Shown: positions 2,102 through 62,178, counted from the stretch's first letter. The stretch: 64,000 nucleotides of DNA from Escherichia coli (GCF_003018255.1 NZ_CP027440.1), one strand, 5' to 3'. A program made the numbers and translations. Notes: generated by a model not told the origin, from the sequence alone.

Positions 2102-3310
2102 TTATGCAAATTCTGCGGGCGCGTTCACTTTGCCTAAATGAATGGCATCCAAAGCAATCATTTTTTCTTCGTTAGTCGGAATTACGGCGCAAATGACACG
2201 CGCATTTTCACTGGAAACAATTCGCTCTCCAAAAGAGTTAGAGCGATTATTCATTTCTGTATCAATCTCTACGCCTAATACAGCTAAATGTTCCATGACC
2301 AGACGACGAATTAAACTTGAATTCTCTCCTATTCCGCCGGTGAATATAATTCCATCCAGGCGATGTAATGAAGCAGCGTGTCCGGCAATATGACGGGCAA
2401 TTCGGTGAACAAAGGTTTTAATTGCCAGTTGCGCGCGTTCGTGACCTTCATGCCAGGCTTTTTCCAGAACACGTAAATCCGAAGAAAGGCCGGAAATACC
2501 TAATAATCCCGACTCTTTATTCACTACGCGCTCCAGGTCCCCCAGGCTCTGGTTGGTTTGGCTGGCGACCCAGGACATCGCACCAAAGTCGACATCGCCA
2601 CTGCGGGTACCCATCATCAAGCCTTCCAGCGGCGTCATTCCCATGGAAGTGTCAACACTCTGACCGTTGCGAACCGCGCAGATTGACGCGCCATTGCCAA
2701 GATGCGCCACAACCAGGCCGGAGTCATCTTCCGCCAAATTCAGCAAAGAATGCGCGCGCTGGGAAACATAGCGGTGCGACGTGCCGTGGAAACCATAACG
2801 GCGTACACCTAACTCTTCATAATATTTCCACGGCAGGCCGTATAAATAAGCTTCCGGAGCCATCGTCTGGTGGAAACTGGTATCAAATACCGCTACCTGA
2901 GTTACGCCCGGAAATAATTGCTGCGCCGATTCAATACCACTTAAATTGGCGTAATTATGCAGGGGTGCCAGTGGAGAAACGCGACGGATATTATCAATGA
3001 CTTCATCGGTAATAATGGCGGACTCGGTAAAAATACTGCCGCCGTGAGCGATGCGGTGGCCAATTAAGGCCACACTGTCATTTAAATTCCGTTTTTCCAG
3101 TTCAAATGCAATTGCCTTCAATGCACCTTCGTAGCTGTGGTGAGCCAGCGGTGCTGGCTCTCCCCCATTTACGGATAAGAATGCATTTTCCGAGTTAATA
3201 CCGTCGGCAATACCTGACATTAATACTTCACAGTCGCTGGCATTGAGTACGGAAAACTTAATCGAAGACGAACCACAGTTAATAACCAAAACAACCGGAA
3301 ATTCATTCAT
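2102..3310 (-). CDS. tdcD: propionate/acetate kinase
   Basis: ORF track 2102..3322; N-terminus [19 protein letters not shown] matches acetate-kinase family TdcD; start trimmed to the ATG at 3310. Confidence 0.92.
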
Positions 3311-3335
3311 CTCTTTTCTCATCCTGAGTTACGGA

Positions 3336-4670
<1,335 letters not shown>

Positions 4671-7813: not shown

Positions 7814-8190
<377 letters not shown>

Positions 8191-8197
8191 GGCGCGC

Positions 8198-8226
8198 AGT
8201 ATAGAGGGTTTGCGCGCCCTTGTCAC
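8198..8226 (-). promoter_or_regulatory. rnpB sigma70 promoter
   Basis: Minus strand reads GTGACA - 17 nt - TATACT - 7 nt - G(+1); the -35 hexamer (8221..8226) overlaps the garK stop codon (8223..8225). Confidence 0.75.
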
Positions 8227-9368
8227 CCCGCGTTGCGCATTCCAATCGCCAGTGTCGCGGCGATATTACGTGAAGCACGGCAGATATTGTCATAAGCTCC
8301 GCGGAATGCTTCGTCTAACGTACCAATGCTGGTCAATACGCTGAAGACCGCATCAATGCCATGCTGATGTACAACGCCAACATCATTGGTCAGGCTACCC
8401 GCAATGCCAATCACCGGTTTATGGTACTTTTTCGCCACGTTTGCGACGCCAATCGGAACCTTGCCGTGAATACTCTGGCTGTCAATACGCCCTTCACCGG
8501 TGATCACCAGCGTACAATCGTGAATATGTTCCTCCAGATTCAGCGCCGTAGTGACGATTTCAATACCACTTTTCAGTTCTGCACCAAGAAACGCCATCAG
8601 CGCCGCGCCCATACCACCCGCAGCTCCTGCGCCGGGGACATCTTTCACATCAACATGCAGCGCTTTTTTAATGACATCGGCATAGTGAGAGAGGTTATTG
8701 TCCAGCTCGACAATCATCGCTTCACTGGCTCCCTTTTGTGGGCCAAAGATGCGCGATGCGCCGTTATCGCCCACCAGCGGATTGGTGACATCACAAGCGA
8801 CGCGAATGACGCAATCTTTTAAGCGCGGATCGAGGCCGGAAATATCAATATCATTCAGAGTATTAAGACTACCGCCGCCAAAACCAATTTCATTGCCGTT
8901 GGCGTCGCATAATTTCGCCCCCAGCGCCTGTACCATGCCTGCGCCGCCATCATTTGTAGCGCTGCCGCCAATGCCGATAATAATGTTTGTTGCACCGCTC
9001 TCCAGCGCCTGCAGGATTAACTCGCCTGTGCCGCGTGAAGTGGTCACGAGTGGATCGCGTTTTTCCGCAGGTACCAGCTCCAGCCCACTGGCCGCCGCCA
9101 TTTCAATAAATGCGGTTTTGCCATCGCCGGAGATCCCCCAACTGGCATCCACTTTCTCGCCCAGCGGCCCTGTAACCCAGGCGTGACGTTCAGAACCCTG
9201 GGTAGCTGCAATCATCGCTTCCACCGTTCCTTCGCCACCATCGGCAACCGGAACAGAAACGTACTGTGCATCAGGAAAAATTTCCCGAAATCCTTTTTCT
9301 ATCGCCTGCGCAACCTCGCTGGCAGATAAACTTTCTTTATAAGAGTCTGGGGCGATTACGATTTTCAT
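8223..9368 (-). CDS. garK: glycerate 2-kinase
   Basis: ORF track 8223..9449; N-terminus MKIVIAPDSYKESLSASEVAQAIE (glycerate kinase family); start trimmed to the ATG at 9368. Confidence 0.9.
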   Translation of the reverse strand: MKIVIAPDSYKESLSASEVAQAIEKGFREIFPDAQYVSVPVADGGEGTVEAMIAATQGSERHAWVTGPLGEKVDASWGISGDGKTAFIEMAAASGLELVPAEKRDPLVTTSRGTGELILQALESGATNIIIGIGGSATNDGGAGMVQALGAKLCDANGNEIGFGGGSLNTLNDIDISGLDPRLKDCVIRVACDVTNPLVGDNGASRIFGPQKGASEAMIVELDNNLSHYADVIKKALHVDVKDVPGAGAAGGMGAALMAFLGAELKSGIEIVTTALNLEEHIHDCTLVITGEGRIDSQSIHGKVPIGVANVAKKYHKPVIGIAGSLTNDVGVVHQHGIDAVFSVLTSIGTLDEAFRGAYDNICRASRNIAATLAIGMRNAG

Positions 9369-9464
9369 ACCTATGCCTGTTACCACATGACGCCGGAGGG
9401 CGTTTCTCTTATTCGGCCTGGATTCCAGGCCCGGATTGCAATACGCCATCCGGGCACGACGTCA

Positions 9465-10349
9465 TTAACGAGTAACTTCGACTTTCGCCAGTTTTTCGTA
9501 GTAGCACGCCAGGGCGCTATGATCTGCCGTTCCTAAACCATCTGCTCGCAGTGCCTGCATCATCTCCATAACCGCAGCTGTGAGCGGCAGTTGCGCACCG
9601 ACGCCGTGGGAAGTATCCAGCGCATTTGCCAGATCCTTAATATGCAGATCAATACGGAAGCCCGGCTTGAAGTTGCGGTCCATCACCATCGGCGCTTTGG
9701 CATCCAGCACGGTACTGCCCGCCAGTCCACCGCGAATTGCCTGATACACCAAATCCGGGTTAACGCCCGCTTTGGTTGCCAGCGTTAACGCTTCTGACAT
9801 CGCGGCAATATTCAGCGCCACAATGACCTGATTCGCCAGTTTGGTAACGTTACCTGCACCAATTTCCCCGGTATGCACCACGGAACCCGCCATCGCTTTC
9901 ATCAAATCATAGTATTTGTCGAAAATAGCCTTGTCGCCGCCCACCATCACTGACAGCGTACCGTCGATGGCTTTCGGTTCACCGCCGCTCACCGGAGCAT
10001 CCAGCATATCAATGCCTTTCGCTTTCAGAGCTTCGCTGATTTCACGGCTTGCCAGCGGTGCAATAGAACTCATATCGATCAATACCGTACCTGGCTTCGC
10101 GCCTTCAATAATGCCATTCTCACCCAGCGCCACCTCTTTCACATGAGGGGAGTTTGGCAGCATGGTTATGATGACGTCACACTGTTCAGCGATCGCTTTA
10201 GCCGTAGAAGCTGTTTCTGCACCTGCAGCAATCACTTCAGCAATAGCTTCTGGGTTACGGTCAGCAACCACCAGCGAGTAACCTGCTTTCAGAAGGTTTT
10301 TACTCATTGGTTTACCCATAATCCCCAGGCCAATAAAACCAACTTTCAT
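9465..10349 (-). CDS. garR: tartronate semialdehyde reductase (2-hydroxy-3-oxopropionate reductase)
   Basis: N-terminus MKVGFIGLGIMGKPMSKNL with a Rossmann GxGxxG motif; gar operon position. Confidence 0.9.
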   Translation of the reverse strand: MKVGFIGLGIMGKPMSKNLLKAGYSLVVADRNPEAIAEVIAAGAETASTAKAIAEQCDVIITMLPNSPHVKEVALGENGIIEGAKPGTVLIDMSSIAPLASREISEALKAKGIDMLDAPVSGGEPKAIDGTLSVMVGGDKAIFDKYYDLMKAMAGSVVHTGEIGAGNVTKLANQVIVALNIAAMSEALTLATKAGVNPDLVYQAIRGGLAGSTVLDAKAPMVMDRNFKPGFRIDLHIKDLANALDTSHGVGAQLPLTAAVMEMMQALRADGLGTADHSALACYYEKLAKVEVTR

Positions 10350-52728: not shown

Positions 52729-52805
<77 letters not shown>

Positions 52806-53062
52806 CCTGAAACGTGGCAAATTCTACTCGTTTTGGGTAAAAAATGCAAATACTGCTGGGATTTGGTGTACCGAGACGGGACGTAAAATCTGCAGGCATT
52901 ATAGTGATCCACGCCACATTTTGTCAACGTTTATTGCTAATCACGTGAATGAATATCCAGTTCACTTTCATTTGTTGAATACTTTTGCCTTCTCCTGCTC
53001 TCCCTTAAGCGCATTATTTTACAAAAAACACACTAAACTCTTCCTGTCTCCGATAAAAGATG

Positions 53063-53101
53063 ATTAAATGAAAACTCATTTATTTTGCATAAAAATTCAG
53101 T
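53063..53101 (+). promoter_or_regulatory. argG control region with putative tandem ARG boxes (ArgR operators)
   Basis: aatgaaaactcattta and tttgcataaaaattcagt resemble the TNTGAAT-AT-rich-ATTCA ARG box consensus; assigned by eye. Confidence 0.5.
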
Positions 53102-53137
53102 GAGAGCGGAAATCCAGGCTCCTCATCAGTTAATTAA

Positions 53138-54496
<1,359 letters not shown>

Positions 54497-54503
54497 TTCG
54501 ACA

Positions 54504-56129
54504 TCAACCCTGCCCTTCAGGGGTGGGGTTACCTTGCTTATCCTCTGTAAACTCCTTTCTGAGCATCACATAATCGAAAACATCATGGTTTGCATCCACA
54601 ACCCGTGAGTCTCCTTTATAGTGTGCAATCACTTCCTCCAGCGTTTTCGGTTGTTCCGGCTTTGTTACCCCCATCCACGCATTAATCAGGTAATTATTGT
54701 AAGCTGTGGAAAAGATGTTGTTTTCCGTTGTGCGATCCACGCCATCCCCAAGAACGGGGCTATACCAGATAAACATCGGGACATGATATGCCTGCTGGCT
54801 GGCCTCCCTGCCTCCATGAAAATAGACGTTCTTCTTCGTAGGGTCACGTTCCAGGCCGTGGTCGGCAAAATACATGACCGAGGCGCGGCGATCTTTTAAT
54901 AATTCAAAAACCTGACCTAGCAAACTATCTGTGTAATGAATGGAGTTGTCATAGCAGGCATCCTGATCGTCCTGCGGTTGAAACACGGCGCTGGATTGCG
55001 GATAGGCGCTACAAGCCGGTTCATGGCTTCCATTTAAATGAAGAACAATCAGTTTCTTTTGCTGCGTATTTTGCTGTAATGCTTGCGATAAATGCGGCAA
55101 CAACAATTCATCAAATCCTCTGACATAAACTGTTTCCATGGCGCGCATGGCGATACTGGTAACTGCTGTACCATTCTGCCGAAAAGCGGATTGCGAGCTT
55201 AGCCAGAAAGTCTGAAATCCTGCTTGATTAGCCATATTAATAATGTTGTCCGGGTAATTATGAATGTCATGACTCAAAACGGAATCAGCAGTTAAAGAAA
55301 GGGGAACCGACAGCGCAGTGTAAGGTGCACCGCTTATTGCTTGATTAAACAGTTTGATCTGTTTTCTTTGTGCTTCGACTTGCGGTGTCGTAGAGCGTGT
55401 ATATCCATACAAAGACATATTGTCGACGCGTACAGACTCCCCCACAATCAACACGTAGGTATCAATACCTGTATCCCTGACTGATAATTGAAAATACGGC
55501 ACCGTGTTTGCAATTGAGAGTAATCTTTGATGCTCTTTCGCTGCTAAAGCAAAATAATTGAGATTGAAAAACGGTGTATAGGTAGCAAATCGCGACGCTA
55601 GTATATATGGACTGAACGCTTTTTTATTTTTTGCATCTTTATAAGCAAATTGACAAGCGGAAAATAAACTGCCCGAAATGACAATCAGCAATAATATTCC
55701 TGTCACTTTTTTCGTCGGCAAGGAAACATCATATTTTATTATTACTGCCAAAAAAAGAAGGGATAAAAAGGCAAAAGCACATAGATAAGGGATATACATC
55801 CCCAGCATTTTGACAACTTCATCCGGATCACTCTGCAGCACACTAATCGCAAATCCATCATTGAAAGTTGTACCAAAGGTACACCATGAATAGAGGCTAA
55901 TACTCATGTCTGCCGCTGTCAGTAACACAAATGGTGCGGCAACAAGCAGGCGAAGCGGAAGGGATGATATACGTTTAACAACCAGGATGGTCAGAACGAA
56001 GAACAGCAATCGCTGAACCATATGCGCTCCGGAAGAGGCGACTAAGTTCGTAATACCAAAAACAATAACACAAAGATACAACAACCAATGAGATTTAAAA
56101 CTTCTAACAAATTTGTTGAATACTGTCAT
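54504..56129 (-). CDS. yhbX: putative phosphoethanolamine transferase (sulfatase superfamily, EptA/OpgE-like)
   Basis: ORF track 54504..56162; ATG at 56129 gives MTVFNKFVRSFKSHWLL; N-terminal TM helices then a sulfatase-like domain; convergent with argG across a 7-nt gap. Confidence 0.85.
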   Translation of the reverse strand: MTVFNKFVRSFKSHWLLYLCVIVFGITNLVASSGAHMVQRLLFFVLTILVVKRISSLPLRLLVAAPFVLLTAADMSISLYSWCTFGTTFNDGFAISVLQSDPDEVVKMLGMYIPYLCAFAFLSLLFLAVIIKYDVSLPTKKVTGILLLIVISGSLFSACQFAYKDAKNKKAFSPYILASRFATYTPFFNLNYFALAAKEHQRLLSIANTVPYFQLSVRDTGIDTYVLIVGESVRVDNMSLYGYTRSTTPQVEAQRKQIKLFNQAISGAPYTALSVPLSLTADSVLSHDIHNYPDNIINMANQAGFQTFWLSSQSAFRQNGTAVTSIAMRAMETVYVRGFDELLLPHLSQALQQNTQQKKLIVLHLNGSHEPACSAYPQSSAVFQPQDDQDACYDNSIHYTDSLLGQVFELLKDRRASVMYFADHGLERDPTKKNVYFHGGREASQQAYHVPMFIWYSPVLGDGVDRTTENNIFSTAYNNYLINAWMGVTKPEQPKTLEEVIAHYKGDSRVVDANHDVFDYVMLRKEFTEDKQGNPTPEGQG

Positions 56130-56544
56130 CCAGAAATCCAAGTTCACAACCAATATAAACAATTATCAACAATGTTCAATTTTATATCAGACATGTTTTT
56201 CAACTCTGATCCATATCAGACCGAAACACTGTTAGTTTTTTCTTTTTAAATGATGCGGCCATTGTTCTCAGTAATTAAATAACATTATCAATGCGTCTCT
56301 AAACATTACGCAGAACGTAGCCATCAGTAGTTATACTGACAGGAGCAGGATGGTTTATCGAGAAGTAAACATATCCGTATTCGTACCGGAACTGGAGTTG
56401 ACACAATAAAGTGCCAATTATGTCAGCAGAAGGGAAAAGTTTATAACTAAGGCGTACCGATACCATCGTTTCAAAGTACCAGCTACGAGTAAAGCAACTG
56501 GACGAGATACAGATACCTGACAACCATTCCTCAGACCAGGACCA

Positions 56545-56577
56545 AAACGAAAAAAGACGCTTTTCAGCGTCTCTTTT
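56545..56577 (-). terminator. rho-independent terminator of the secG-leuU transcript
   Basis: Plus strand aaaacgaaaaaagacgcttttcagcgtct; on the minus strand agacgct/agcgtct stem followed by a T-run. Confidence 0.8.
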
Positions 56578-56585
56578 CTGGAATT

Positions 56586-56672
56586 TGGTACCGAGGACGG
56601 GACTTGAACCCGTAAGCCCTATTGGGCACTACCACCTCAAGGTAGCGTGTCTACCAATTCCACCACCTCGGC
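56586..56672 (-). tRNA. leuU: tRNA-Leu (GAG anticodon), 87 nt
   Basis: Reverse complement reads GCCGAGGTGGTGGAATTGGTAGACACGCTACCTTGAGGTGGTAGTGCCCAATAGGGCTTACGGGTTCAAGTCCCGTCCTCGGTACCA. Confidence 0.95.
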
Positions 56673-56686
56673 ACGGATACTACTTT

Positions 56687-57019
56687 TTAGTTCGGGATAT
56701 CGCTGGTCGGCTTAGCCGGAGCTGCTGGCTGAATTTGTTCGGTTTTCGTCGGCGCACTCAGGTTTTCCCATTCGCTACCTTTATTGGTTTTGTTGCTATT
56801 GATGTTACCCAGCACCAGACTGATGATGAAGAATAACGTTGCCAGCAGCGCTGTCATGCGGGTCATGAAGTTACCAGAACCACTTGAACCAAACAGCGTA
56901 GCGGAAGCGCCTGCTCCGAAGGAGGCTCCCATATCAGCGCCTTTACCTTGCTGCAGCATGATCAGACCAACAAGGCCAATTGCCACAATAAGGAAAACTA
57001 CTAAAAGAGCTTCGTACAT
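56687..57019 (-). CDS. secG: protein-export membrane protein SecG
   Basis: ORF track 56687..57067; ATG at 57019 gives MYEALLVVFLIVAIGLVGLIMLQQGKGADMGASFG. Confidence 0.95.
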   Translation of the reverse strand: MYEALLVVFLIVAIGLVGLIMLQQGKGADMGASFGAGASATLFGSSGSGNFMTRMTALLATLFFIISLVLGNINSNKTNKGSEWENLSAPTKTEQIQPAAPAKPTSDIPN

Positions 57020-57202
57020 AATCAACCTGTTCCTTGCGGAGTTGCCGCGTACCAATGCTTCAACCAATAAAGCGGGAGTTTTTAATCTTTCCCACTGAAG
57101 CGGGTGTGAATACTAACCAAAGCGAATGACCTTCGCAAGGGCAATTTTATTGCATTGTATCAACTGCGGAAAAAAACAGCAAAACCGATGTGTTCGCTGA
57201 GA

Positions 57203-57232
57203 AAAAAGGCGACAATCGCCGCCTTTTTAGCC
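57203..57232 (-). terminator. hairpin plus U-run 3' of glmM
   Basis: Plus strand aaaaaaggcgacaatcgccgcctttt located just downstream (minus sense) of the glmM stop. Confidence 0.55.
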
Positions 57233-57246
57233 AGTTATTTATCGTT

Positions 57247-58584
57247 TTAAACGGCTTTTACTGCATCGGCGATGCGGTGTGCAAATTCAGTCACCTGCGC
57301 TTCGTCTTCGCCTTCCACCATCACGCGAATTAACGGTTCGGTGCCGGATTTACGCAACAGCACACGTCCACGGCTACCCAGCGCAGCTTCAACTTCTGCG
57401 GTCACAGCTTTGACTGACTCATGCTCCAGCGGATCGCCGCTGCCTGCTGTGTAACGCACGTTAACCAGAATCTGCGGGAACATTTTCATGCCGCTGCAAA
57501 GGTCGTGCAGGCTCATATGGTTACGCGCCATCGCCGCCAGCACCTGCAAGCCAGCAACAATGCCGTCACCGGTAGTGGTTTTATCCAGCAGGATCACATG
57601 ACCGGAGTTCTCTGCACCGATACGCCAGCCTTTCTCCTGCATTTTTTCCAGTACGTAGCGGTCACCCACTTTCGCGCGCGCAAATGGAATACCTAACTGT
57701 TTCAGCGCCAGTTCAAGCCCCATGTTGCTCATCAATGTACCCACAGCACCACCACGCAGCTGGCCCTGACGAAGACCTTCACGCGCGATGATATACATGA
57801 TCTGATCGCCATCGACTTTATTGCCTTCATGGTCAACCATAATCACGCGATCGCCGTCGCCGTCGAAGGCAATACCGAGATCCGCTTTTTCAGCCAGCAC
57901 ACGAGCCTGGAGCGCGCGAACGTCGGTAGCCCCCACTTCGGCATTGATGTTTACACCGTTCGGCTCACAACCGATAGCGATAACGTTCGCCCCCAGTTCG
58001 CGCAGCACGTTCGGCGCGATGTGATAAGTCGCACCGTTTGCACAATCCACCACAATCTTCAGTTCACTGAGGCTAAGTTCGTTCGGGAACGTGGCTTTGC
58101 AAAACTCGATATAGCGACCCGCAGCATCAACGATACGGCTGGCTTTACCCAGTTCTGCCGAATCAACGCAGCTGATCTCTTTTTCCATTTCCGCTTCGAT
58201 GGCCTCTTCTACCGCATCCGGTAGTTTGGTGCCGTCGATAGAGAAGAATTTAATGCCGTTATCGTAGAATGGGTTATGCGATGCAGAAATTACAATTCCA
58301 GCCTCTGCGCGGAAGGTACGCGTCAGATAAGCCACGGCCGGTGTTGGCATCGGGCCAGTGAAGAGCGCGGAAAGACCGGCTGCCGCAAGCCCCGCTTCCA
58401 GTGCTGACTCCAGCATATAGCCAGAAATACGCGTGTCTTTACCAATAATAATCTTACGGGAGCCGTGGCGCGCCAGCACTTTACCCGCGGCCCAACCCAG
58501 CTTAAGCACAAAATCAGGGGTGATCGGCGCATCCCCTACACGACCACGAATCCCATCGGTACCGAAATATTTACGATTACTCAT
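57247..58584 (-). CDS. glmM: phosphoglucosamine mutase
   Basis: 445-aa [20 protein letters not shown] with the active-site Ser in the SASHNP motif. Confidence 0.96.
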
Positions 58585-59425
58585 AGCGTTTGTTTTCCTT
58601 TGCAGACAGAGTGGCTTCCACCACCCGCATCGCTTCTACGGTTTCTTTGACGTCATGAACACGAATGATGTGCGCGCCTTGCATTGCGGCAATGACCGCA
58701 CAGGCCAGACTACCGCTCAAACGCTCGGACGGCCCCACGTTCAGCAGCTGTCCAATCATCGATTTTCGTGACATACCCACCAACAGCGGCAGGTTGAAAT
58801 GGTGAAATTCAGCCAGGCGCGCCAGTAATGAATAGTTATGGGAGAGATTTTTACCGAAACCGAATCCGGGGTCGAGCAACAATTTCTCTTTTGCGATACC
58901 CGCCTGCTCGCAACGTGCTATTTGCTCAATAAAGTAGCGATTCACTTCTGCAAAGACATCGTGATACTTCGGGGCTTCCTGCATGGTTTTTGGATTTCCC
59001 TGCATATGCATCAGACAAACCGGTAAACCGGTTTCTGCAGCCGCCTCCAGAGCGCCAGGTTCGGAAAGGGAGCGGATATCGTTAATAATGTGAGCGCCAA
59101 CTTTCGCTGACTCACGGATGACTTCTGGTTTGGATGTATCTACCGAGATCCAGACTTCGAAGCGTTGAGCAATTGCCTCAACCACAGGAATAACACGTTG
59201 TAACTCTTCTTCAACGCTAACTTCCGCCGCCCCTGGACGTGTGGACTCGCCACCAACGTCAATGATCGTCGCGCCAGCGTTGATCATCAGATTCGCATGT
59301 TTCACCGCATCTATCAGCGAGTTATGCGTGCCACCATCCGAAAAGGAATCAGGCGTGACGTTGAGGATCCCCATTACGTGAGGATGGCTAAGGTCCAGTG
59401 AAGTACCCTGGGCAAAGAGTTTCAT
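58577..59425 (-). CDS. folP: dihydropteroate synthase
   Basis: ATG at 59425 gives [32 protein letters not shown]; 3' end overlaps the glmM start. Confidence 0.95.
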
Positions 59426-59514
59426 AATGTTATCCCTGGTATGAATTGATAAGAAAAAACCCCGGAGCACGCCCCGGGGTTTTTGGTACAAATACAGTCA
59501 TCTGATGCGGGAAC

Positions 59515-61449
59515 TTACTTGTCGCCTAACTGCTCTGACATGGTGTTACCCGGGTTCGGCGTACGCGGTTCATCAACCGGACGAGGAGCCTTTGGACTAC
59601 CATTGTCGCCAGAATTGTTAGAAGCGCCTGGTTCTTCCCAGCCCGCTGGCGGACGTACATCGCGACGTGCCATCAGGTCATCAATCTGCGGTGCGTCGAT
59701 AGTCTCATATTTCATGAGAGCATCTTTCATCGCATGCAGTATATCCATATTGTCGGTCAGAAGCTGACGCGCACGATTATAGTTGCGCTCAATCAGTGCT
59801 TTCACTTCCTGGTCGATGATACGTGCAGTTTCATCGGACATATGTTTCGCCTTCGCTACGCTACGGCCGAGGAACACTTCACCTTCTTCTTCCGCGTACA
59901 GCAGTGGACCCAATTTCTCAGAGAAGCCCCACTGAGTCACCATGTTACGTGCCAGGTTGGTCGCAACTTTAATATCGTTGGACGCACCGGTAGAAACATG
60001 TTCCGGCCCGTAGATGATCTCTTCTGCCAGACGACCACCGTACAGCGTAGAAATCTGGCTTTCCAGTTTCTGACGGCTAGCGCTGATTGCGTCGCCCTCA
60101 GGCAAGAAGAAAGTCACACCCAGCGCACGACCGCGTGGGATAATCGTCACTTTGTGCACCGGATCATGTTCCGGCACCAGGCGACCGATAATCGCATGAC
60201 CCGCTTCGTGGTAAGCCGTCGATTCTTTCTGCGCTTCCGTCATCACCATGGAGCGACGTTCCGCACCCATCATGATTTTGTCTTTCGCTTTCTCGAACTC
60301 AACCATCGACACAACGCGTTTGTTGCCACGAGCAGCGAACAGTGCCGCTTCGTTCACCAGGTTCGCCAGGTCAGCACCGGAGAAACCAGGAGTACCACGG
60401 GCAATGATTGCCGCGTCGATATCGGGTGCCAATGGTACGCGACGCATGTGAACTTTCAGGATCTGTTCACGACCGCGAACATCTGGCAAGCCAACCACAA
60501 CCTGACGGTCGAAACGGCCAGGACGCAGCAGCGCCGGGTCGAGAACGTCCGGACGGTTAGTCGCGGCGATAACGATGATACCTTCGTTACCTTCGAAGCC
60601 ATCCATCTCAACCAGCATCTGGTTCAGAGTCTGTTCACGTTCATCGTGACCACCGCCCAGACCTGCGCCACGCTGGCGGCCTACGGCGTCGATTTCATCG
60701 ATAAAGATGATGCAGGGTGCCGCTTTCTTCGCCTGTTCGAACATGTCACGAACACGGGATGCACCCACACCGACGAACATTTCTACGAAGTCAGAACCGG
60801 AGATAGTAAAGAACGGAACTTTCGCTTCGCCTGCAATCGCTTTCGCCAGCAACGTTTTACCGGTACCCGGAGGACCGACCATCAGGACGCCTTTCGGGAT
60901 CTTACCGCCGAGTTTCTGGAAGCGGCTCGGCTCGCGCAGATACTCAACCAGTTCAGCAACTTCTTCTTTTGCTTCGTCGCAGCCCGCAACGTCAGCAAAG
61001 GTCGTTTTGATCTGATCTTCAGTCAGCATGCGCGCTTTGCTCTTACCAAACGACATGGCACCTTTGCCACCGCCGCCCTGCATTTGACGCATGAAGAAGA
61101 TCCAGACACCAATCAGCAACAGCATCGGGAACCAGGAGATGAAGATAGAAGCCAGCAGGCTTGGTTCTTCAGGCGGTTCACCGACAACCTTGACGTTCTT
61201 GGTCAACAAGTTATCCAGTAATTTCGGATCCTGAACCGGAATGTAAGTGGTATAACGGTTACTATCTTTCTTGGTAACGTTGATTTCACGTCCGTTGATA
61301 CGCGCTTCACGAACCTGGTCGTTATTGACCTCTTGTAGGAAGGTAGAGTAATCCACCTTACGGCCATTAGACTCGCTGGGCCCAAAGCTCTGGAATACTG
61401 ACATCAGCACAACGGCAATGACCAGCCAGAGTATTAGGTTTTTCGCCAT
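59515..61449 (-). CDS. ftsH: ATP-dependent zinc metalloprotease FtsH (AAA+)
   Basis: ORF track to 61458; [19 protein letters not shown] from the ATG at 61449; Walker A GPPGTGKT and zinc-binding HEAGH motif. Confidence 0.96.
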
Positions 61450-61548
61450 GTCACTCAAGGGATTAACCTCTTATTACAACTGTGTTAAAAACAGCGTCAG
61501 GATACTCTATATCCAGCATCTTTCAAACTTTCGTCTGAAATCTCCCGG

Positions 61549-62178
61549 TTAGGGTTTACGCCCGGTCGCTACAATATACACTTCCCGCGAACGTGCGCGA
61601 GAAGAGTCCGGCTTACGAACTTTGACCTTCGTAAACAGGGAGCGAATTTCCCTTAGATACTCATCGAAACCTTCGCCCTGGAACACCTTCACTACAAAAC
61701 TGCCACCTGGCGCTAATACATCACGACACATTTCTAGCGCCAGTTCCACCAGATACATGGCACGGGGGATATCCACCGCCGGTGTTCCGCTCATGTTTGG
61801 TGCCATATCGGACATGACAACCTGGACTTTGCTGTCGCCAACGCGCTCCAGCAGTGCTTTCATCACCAGTTCATCACGAAAATCGCCCTGAAGAAAGTCC
61901 ACACCAACGATAGGATCCATAGGTAAAAGATCGCAAGCGATGATACGGCCTTTACCGCCAATTTGGGTGACCACATATTGTGACCAACCACCCGGCGCAG
62001 CACCAAGGTCGACAACCGTCATTCCCGGTTTAAAGAGTTTGTCACTTTGCTGTATTTCATCAAGTTTAAACCAGGCACGGGAACGTAACCCCTTTTTCTG
62101 TGCCTGTTGAACATATTTATCGCTAAAGTGTTCCTGAAGCCAGCGGCTGGAGCTGGCAGAACGCTTCTTACCTGTCAT
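61549..62178 (-). CDS. rlmE: 23S rRNA (uridine2552-2'-O)-methyltransferase
   Basis: 209-aa [45 protein letters not shown]. Confidence 0.95.

Follow-up and report, generated by a model that had tools for sequence, protein, structure and literature searches.

What does YhbX modify, and why does its gene lie so tightly against argG? Phosphoethanolamine (PEtN) transferases affect how the envelope is charged, how well a cell resists polymyxins and antimicrobial peptides, and how the host recognizes it. The acceptors of the other chromosomal EptA-type paralogues of Escherichia coli K-12 appear to be known, which leaves YhbX as the sole exception of the five. We addressed these questions in E. coli NZ_CP027440.1 (GCF_003018255.1), using a stretch of 64,000 nt that is referred to below as the window. 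The gene is a known, annotated E. coli gene of a known family, and it represents no new kind of system. What is added here is the variable cassette that carries it together with an alternative allele, the separate clade of the protein, relatives linked to waa genes, a second, island-borne copy, and an asymmetry in terminators between the two alleles.

The searchable open-access literature mentioning yhbX assigns it no function, and K-12 RefSeq keeps the name ‘putative hydrolase YhbX’ (b3173), in line with the first-pass annotation of the window, which had described the substrate as not established. A 2023 review that distinguishes eleven classes of PEtN transferase is not among the literature mentioning the gene, and a published tree of these enzymes has no YhbX entry from either Salmonella LT2 or Citrobacter rodentium. 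On balance we lean, with somewhat better than even confidence, towards YhbX being an active PEtN transferase that modifies a conserved glycan of the envelope, most likely the lipopolysaccharide (LPS) core, and whose transcript overlaps that of argG in antisense. The payoff is modest, as yhbX is dispensable and no phenotype has been reported for it. Cassette polymorphism (yhbX versus a helix-turn-helix gene) and a further copy that about 12% of strains carry on an island nevertheless indicate a family that is mobile within E. coli, which bears on how mcr-like functions arise.

Organization of the yhbX locus

The gene for argininosuccinate synthase, argG (53153-54496, + strand), is an open reading frame of 447 aa that carries this name in K-12 and other genomes. 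It converges on yhbX (54504-56129, - strand), whose 541 codons plus stop are supported by the reading frame, by Pfam and NCBIfam matches and by the K-12 RefSeq product. The gap between the two stop codons is 7 nt (54497-54503), exactly as previously described; of the interval 54497-56129 given earlier for yhbX, the end stands, but the start takes in the 7-nt gap and has to be moved to 54504, where the reading frame ends. The protein of the window has the same length as the K-12 product and differs from it at three residues. The region is 100% identical to E. coli JNE23-011 and is matched by 5425 of 5426 complete E. coli genomes.

On its other side, yhbX is flanked by leuU, a tRNA-Leu(GAG) gene (56586-56672, - strand) identified by ARAGORN and by the Rfam tRNA family. 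The spacer between the yhbX ATG and leuU measures 456 nt (56130-56585), and not 420 bp as first proposed. The frame is open upstream of the ATG as far as a TTG at 56162; a start there would lengthen the protein to 552 aa and shorten the spacer to 423 nt. The ATG is the likelier start, since the Leminorella homologue aligns from M1-T2 and the K-12 RefSeq product has 541 aa. Within the spacer, the secG-leuU intrinsic terminator (56549-56578, - strand) forms a bidirectional hairpin that the terminator scan found on both strands. The segment 56130-56543 is presumed to hold the yhbX promoter region; promoter-like hexamers upstream of the gene (56179-56152 and 56190-56162) are no commoner than in shuffled sequence. 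Rfam searches of the spacer and the argG junction gave no family besides tRNA.

Fold and catalytic residues of YhbX

Domain searches uphold the earlier description of YhbX as a 541-aa membrane enzyme of the sulfatase superfamily resembling EptA, EptB and OpgE, a placement that the first-pass annotation had staked on the outcome of such a search. Residues 224-467 match Pfam Sulfatase (PF00884, E=2.2e-56) and form the periplasmic sulfatase-fold catalytic domain (54729-55460, - strand). They are preceded by an N-terminal membrane domain of about residues 1-210 (55500-56129, - strand), made of five hydrophobic transmembrane segments and bridging helices. The five segments lie inside residues 13-163 on a Kyte-Doolittle plot, and an AlphaFold2 model computed from 26 sequences of the clade described below (pLDDT 90.2, pTM 0.87) has helices at 15-29, 34-52, 57-85, 113-132 and 140-167.

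Both sequence and structure place YhbX beside characterized PEtN transferases. In a PDB sequence search the best matches were E. coli EptC and full-length Neisseria meningitidis EptA (NmEptA), both with E of about 1e-23, the latter spanning residues 41-460. The best Foldseek matches of the model were full-length NmEptA (5fgn), MCR-1 (9nww) and the periplasmic domain of EcEptC. For the catalytic domain alone, TM scores against EptC, EptA and MCR-1 were 0.72-0.78, the top value belonging to EcEptC, and LtaS/LtaP and YejM/PbgA were more distant structural neighbours.

Catalytic residues are retained throughout. E231 (codon 55437-55439), T271 (55317-55319), H364, H369, D423-H424 (54858-54863) and H438 (54816-54818), with these codon positions confirmed by translation, align with the corresponding motifs of NmEptA and are invariant in the five K-12 paralogues and the 26 clade members. 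The equivalent residues in EptA and MCR-1 bind zinc and carry the phospho-intermediate. With a sulfatase fold, five transmembrane helices, the threonine and the zinc ligands all present, YhbX has the features of an EptA/MCR-type PEtN transferase and, judging from its sequence, looks like an active rather than a degenerate enzyme. By analogy with EptA and MCR-1, this inner-membrane protein would use a zinc site formed by E231, D423 and H424, with H369 and H438, to activate Thr271, which would receive PEtN from phosphatidylethanolamine, hold it covalently as an intermediate and pass it to an acceptor.

Membership of any named subfamily is a different matter. Every NCBIfam model for EptA, EptB, CptA and MCR matches YhbX over almost its full length, and every one scores far under its curated cut-off. 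The best is ‘phosphoethanolamine--lipid A transferase’, with 156 bits where the cut-off is 500. The EptA equivalogs reach 94.5 of 660 bits (NF008619) and 122 of 561 (NF007160), that for the Kdo PEtN transferase EptB 105.7 of 493 (NF008593), and the EptC/CptA models 142.3 of 404 (NF007933) and 124.4 of 900 (NF012179).

A variable low-GC cassette and purifying selection on yhbX

Comparison with the alternative allele of strain S40 explains the layout of the locus. Homology between the alleles ends at 54497, one base past the argG TAA, and picks up again at 56544, immediately ahead of the hairpin of the secG-leuU terminator, which marks the right border of the variable segment. The intervening 2,046 bp (54498-56543), namely yhbX and 414 bp upstream of it, constitute a variable cassette that is further marked by its GC content and by counts of its presence and replacement. 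The close packing of yhbX against argG is therefore the boundary of a cassette, and most of the 456-nt spacer is cassette DNA (56130-56543), with only 56544-56585 belonging to the conserved flank.

The GC content of the cassette is about 0.42, compared with 0.51 for the window, and it falls to 0.36-0.44 over the 5′ half of yhbX and the spacer, compared with 0.51-0.55 in the flanks. At third codon positions the GC fraction is 0.43 for yhbX, 0.59 for argG and 0.56 for glmM. Among 5426 complete E. coli genomes, yhbX is present in 5178 (95%) and full length in 5159. In 237 genomes (4.4%) a 1168-bp segment with a GC content of 0.37, which encodes a 317-aa helix-turn-helix (HTH_19) protein, replaces the cassette between argG and leuU. 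Atypical GC, presence/absence polymorphism and adjacency to a tRNA gene are thus all found here as in tRNA-associated islands, but there is no integrase among the open reading frames of the cassette and a search for boundary or flanking direct repeats found none.

These properties raise the alternative that yhbX came in by horizontal transfer and persists in E. coli only as a silenced, cryptic remnant that has no role there at present. The low GC and GC3 and the presence/absence polymorphism fit that description, as do the IS1 or IS3 insertions that interrupt the gene in some strains, and the low GC may mean that yhbX is poorly expressed in the laboratory. The searchable open-access literature reports no phenotype, and two groups have treated the intergenic regions on either side of the gene as neutral places for insertions. 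We nonetheless consider a remnant unlikely: all 541 codons are intact in six diverse strains, with no stops or frameshifts, pairwise dN/dS among these strains is 0.04-0.22, indicating purifying selection, full-length copies are nearly as numerous as the gene itself, and no catalytic residue has been lost. The intact codons and low dN/dS on one side, and the 4.4% of genomes without yhbX and the IS insertions on the other, point to a gene that is kept by selection and yet dispensable.

Two published observations touch on the gene. A yhbX knockout was recovered in a sigma54-bypass screen; we rejected it as functional evidence, as the authors of the screen themselves discounted it. With rpoN about 23 kb away, the phenotype is most likely an artefact of P1 linkage, through co-transduction of wild-type rpoN. 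A GalR site inside yhbX is a computational prediction, and its authors saw no regulation.

Paralogues and relatives of YhbX

Among the K-12 paralogues, OpgE scores highest against YhbX (122 bits), followed by EptC (111), EptB (102) and EptA (85). A search of 1.84 billion cluster representatives returned 7361 relatives at E<=1e-3 and 120 at E<=1e-30. In a neighbour-joining tree of full-length hits and K-12 paralogues, a crude distance tree, YhbX falls in a clade of about 55 clusters that stands apart from the clades of OpgE, EptC and EptA/EptB. On these sequence comparisons, YhbX is not orthologous to EptA, EptB, EptC/CptA or OpgE and belongs to a separate, sparsely populated clade.

Each of the characterized enzymes shares something different with YhbX. 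OpgE (YbiP), the PEtN transferase of osmoregulated periplasmic glucans (OPG), has the same sulfatase-fold domain with the invariant Glu, Thr, Asp-His and His, but its similarity (30% over 268 aa, residues 198-454) is confined to that domain and the membrane domains barely align. With a partial alignment and a position in a different clade, OpgE does not qualify as an orthologue. EptC/CptA, which adds PEtN to phosphorylated heptose I of the LPS core, aligns over residues 18-457, nearly the full length, and is the best match of YhbX in the PDB by sequence and by catalytic-domain fold; its identity is only 24%, however, with 142 bits against a cut-off of 404, and it too falls in a separate clade. 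The lipid A PEtN transferases EptA/LptA and MCR-1 share the five transmembrane helices and periplasmic domain, a full-length structural match, and the threonine nucleophile and zinc ligands, whereas their identities are 18-27%, their family scores lie far under the cut-offs and, of the E. coli paralogues, EptA is the furthest removed.

Closer relatives are scattered. Among the matches listed, the nearest are a Leminorella grimontii protein (67% identity), the island-borne E. coli copy (65%) and a protein of Hafnia paralvei (47%), followed by Buttiauxella (42-46%), Mixta gaviniae (45%), Microvirgula (42%), Kluyvera (41%), Enterobacter and Lelliottia (37-38%), Citrobacter gillenii and C. werkmanii (36-37%) and Proteus proteins of the PMI3040 type (31-35%); Snodgrassella, Cobetia and Chryseobacterium supply relatives of lower identity. 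The distribution is patchy and identity does not track species phylogeny. Proteus mirabilis PMI3040, whose type is similar over the full length, and the island-borne paralogue share the clade with YhbX, but both are encoded at other chromosomal locations. The second, island-borne copy occurs in 634 of 5426 E. coli genomes (about 12%).

One genome scan behind this set used an alignment of seven sequences; E. coli itself is not among the matches listed, and other taxa may likewise be missing from them. Other searches extended the set little: a word-indexed search with yhbX returned near-identical E. coli sequences only, a plasmid search with YhbX gave mostly chromosomes filed as plasmids together with distant mcr/ept genes, and N. 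gonorrhoeae records scored at most 99 bits. One fragment with 74% identity (P0157) had the appearance of a sister-species orthologue and was dropped, because its contig follows the window colinearly for 9.35 kb, with 82.7% identity and a single gap, a pattern in keeping with reads that had been chemically converted or were full of errors.

Genomic context of relatives and proposed acceptor

None of the 80 related loci listed has argG, secG, glmM or rimP near the yhbX relative. The position of yhbX thus appears to be specific to Escherichia, with no syntenic orthologues outside the genus. What recurs instead is proximity to LPS genes. In Enterobacter soli, E. wuhouensis, E. asburiae and Lelliottia, tdh is followed by the yhbX-like gene, a gene of the O-antigen ligase family, a GT2 gene, a Caps_synth glycosyltransferase gene and yibQ. 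Hafnia has yibQ, the yhbX-like gene and tdh-kbl-rfaD-waaF-waaC, and Morganella has waaC-waaF-rfaD, the yhbX-like gene and yibQ. In K-12, the slot between yibQ and tdh is occupied by waaH, which encodes an LPS-core glucuronosyltransferase. In Citrobacter gillenii the yhbX-like gene adjoins htrL. Linkage to waa is seen at about nine of the best 35 relative loci, and E. coli yhbX is neither in nor near the waa cluster. Other relatives sit at loci unrelated to waa (trp-ompW, elaA-kdp, fimbrial genes, yicC-ligB).

A second pattern is mobility. The island-borne E. coli paralogue adjoins a P4-type integrase gene and tRNA-Phe, and the Leminorella homologue adjoins DndB in a defence island. That the closest relatives, among the matches listed, stand alone on mobile or defence islands suggests that their acceptor should be present in any host. 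Taken together, waa-linked and stand-alone mobile relatives suggest, with moderate weight, that the likeliest target is the conserved core region of LPS. The acceptor of YhbX would then be a conserved envelope glycan, most probably in the core region of LPS, an association that is direct for EptC and comes for YhbX through the genomic context of its relatives. YhbX might also alter the charge of the envelope, as the first-pass annotation suggested.

EptA, EptB and EptC have already been credited with the PEtN positions known on the lipid A and core of E. coli, which counts against the LPS-core assignment. A more specific and tentative proposal is that the YhbX clade could be a further, unrecognised class of PEtN transferase whose acceptor is unlike those of EptA, EptB, EptC and OpgE, either another position of the inner core or a universal envelope glycan, and that yhbX might be a swap-in cassette tied inversely to argG and arginine status by antisense read-through.

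The glucan substrate of OpgE offers a different acceptor, with YhbX serving these osmoregulated periplasmic glucans as a back-up or condition-specific PEtN transferase. No K-12 paralogue scores higher than OpgE, and some database records name YhbX relatives ‘glucan phosphoethanolaminetransferase’. These labels, however, are automatic annotation, the similarity to OpgE covers the catalytic domain only and the two proteins fall in separate clades, the relatives are found next to LPS genes and not opg genes, and opgE has already been reported as the OPG PEtN transferase gene, all of which makes a glucan acceptor rather improbable.

We likewise give little credence to a protein acceptor, or to transfer or hydrolysis of another phospho-head group such as phosphoglycerol, as carried out by LtaS and OpgB. 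The family does contain enzymes that target proteins (C. jejuni EptC on FlgG, Neisseria PptA on pilin), LtaS/LtaP and YejM/PbgA are among the more distant structural neighbours, and a different head group would fit the K-12 label ‘putative hydrolase’; yet the closest neighbours in sequence and structure are all PEtN transferases acting on glycolipids, and the context of the relatives consists of glycan and LPS genes. Least credible is a lipid A transferase of the EptA/MCR kind that could add to polymyxin resistance, for although the top NCBIfam model carries that name and the model of YhbX matches NmEptA and MCR-1 over its full length, the scores (156 bits against 500, and 94 against 660 for the EptA equivalog) are far too low, EptA, at 85 bits, is the paralogue furthest from YhbX among the four, the tree sets YhbX apart from EptA/EptB, and yhbX is nearly universal in E. 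coli, a polymyxin-susceptible species.

The argG-yhbX junction

The second element of our preferred reading, an antisense overlap of the argG and yhbX transcripts, depends on the end of the cassette next to argG. Here YhbX carries a C-terminal tail, FTEDKQGNPTPEGQG (54507-54551, - strand), that is specific to the chromosomal E. coli protein. The Leminorella and island-borne homologues end about ten residues earlier, and at the nucleotide level homology with the Leminorella gene ends about 68 nt short of the cassette end. The tail is disordered in the model, in which the last 20 or so residues are poorly resolved (pLDDT block means of 48 and 34, and below 50 at residues 538-541).

When both strands were folded, the argG-sense RNA gave a hairpin of 11 bp, three of them G.U pairs, within the last yhbX codons (54506-54530, + strand). 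It is possibly a weak terminator or stabiliser of the argG transcript. The yhbX-sense RNA lacks this hairpin, because the G.U wobbles turn into C.A mismatches on that strand. The terminator scan found no canonical or terminator-like site at the junction in the yhbX allele. In the alternative allele, by comparison, argG has a canonical terminator made up of GGCCGCAAATGCGGCC and a T7 after it.

With a gap of 7 nt and no canonical argG terminator, the convergent transcripts of argG and yhbX should overlap in antisense. Both features are sequence prerequisites of a convergent excludon. Engineered insertions in the 7-nt gap are routine, and the accessible part of the source mentions no adverse effect of them; tolerance of such insulated operons, as far as that part goes, is a point of difference from convergent excludons and agrees with yhbX being dispensable. 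The antisense overlap raised in the first-pass annotation is already on record: in MG1655 the pair argG-yhbX is listed in the core convergent ‘excludome’, being among 165 convergent pairs for which ExcludonFinder detected overlap in at least half of 58 transcriptomes (PMC12288877). Through such an overlap, induction of argG could lower the expression of yhbX.

Allelic variation and loss at the argG-leuU interval

The argG-leuU interval does not carry yhbX in every strain. A different cassette with a low GC content (0.37) occupies it in 237 of the 5426 complete E. coli genomes, and in E. coli S40 this alternative (L088, positions 1799-2966) takes the place of window positions 54498-56543. Its product is a protein of 317 amino acids with an HTH_19 domain at the N-terminus, and the cassette also provides a canonical terminator for argG. 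Divergence extends into the neighboring gene: over its final 500 bp, argG is just 94% identical between the yhbX allele and the alternative allele, which suggests recombination within this 3′ segment.

Where native yhbX is present, it can be interrupted. In three E. coli genomes (H54, H88 and H108), annotated IS1 or IS3 (IS1203) transposase genes lie inside the matched argG-yhbX-leuU region, and in two of these strains they break yhbX into a pair of annotated pieces, in keeping with a dispensable gene. A megablast search with the argG-yhbX-leuU-secG query left a sole complete genome without a native-locus match, NZ_OZ369161.1 (E. coli CNR20180903, 4.28 Mb). Since the only match in this genome is an island-borne yhbX-type pseudogene, the entire argG-yhbX-leuU-secG region may have been deleted or rearranged.

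Related genes on islands and beside tRNA genes

This pseudogene belongs to a second YhbX-type gene (65% amino acid identity) that is carried on a chromosomal island (L006, positions 7908-9581; L087, positions 9137-9778). The island gene is found in 634 of the 5426 genomes, being full-length in 455 and a pseudogene in some. It adjoins a P4-type integrase and tRNA-Phe, and in one strain lies next to papG-II and IS66. Proximity to tRNA genes is also seen for K-12 eptB (L003, positions 2617-4476), which directly adjoins proK much as yhbX stands beside leuU. The adjacency of these two phosphoethanolamine-transferase genes to tRNA genes may be a coincidence, or genes of this type may have arrived beside tRNA genes. 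A separate branch comprises proteins of about 550 amino acids with 34% identity to YhbX. Among the genera examined, it occupies a fixed yicC-ligB slot in three, namely Franconibacter (L026), Lelliottia (L028) and Phytobacter (L033), and it includes P0137, a protein of E. fergusonii and some E. coli.

Probable annotation and assembly artefacts

Several NCBI records of YhbX-type proteins (P0004, P0085, P0116, P0311) are titled ‘phosphate starvation-inducible protein PsiE’ or ‘arylsulfatase’, names that look like propagated mis-annotations. One Logan contig (L093, from SRR3359616) is colinear with window positions 52776-62127 at 82.7% identity. With a single gap in 9.35 kb and fragmented genes, it was more likely assembled from reads that were chemically converted or rich in errors than derived from a truly divergent species.

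Spacer upstream of yhbX

The spacer contains a putative ORF of 74 codons with a TTG start (window positions 56299-56523, minus strand, as yhbX), which is not annotated in K-12. Genomic SELEX with RpoH is reported to give a weak peak (intensity 3.2) within the yhbX-leuU spacer (PMC5493296). By coordinate conversion, it falls at about window position 56446, approximately 317 nt ahead of the ATG start codon of yhbX, and a sigma32 -35-like sequence, CTTTGAAA, lies near the peak at 56469-56476 on the minus strand.
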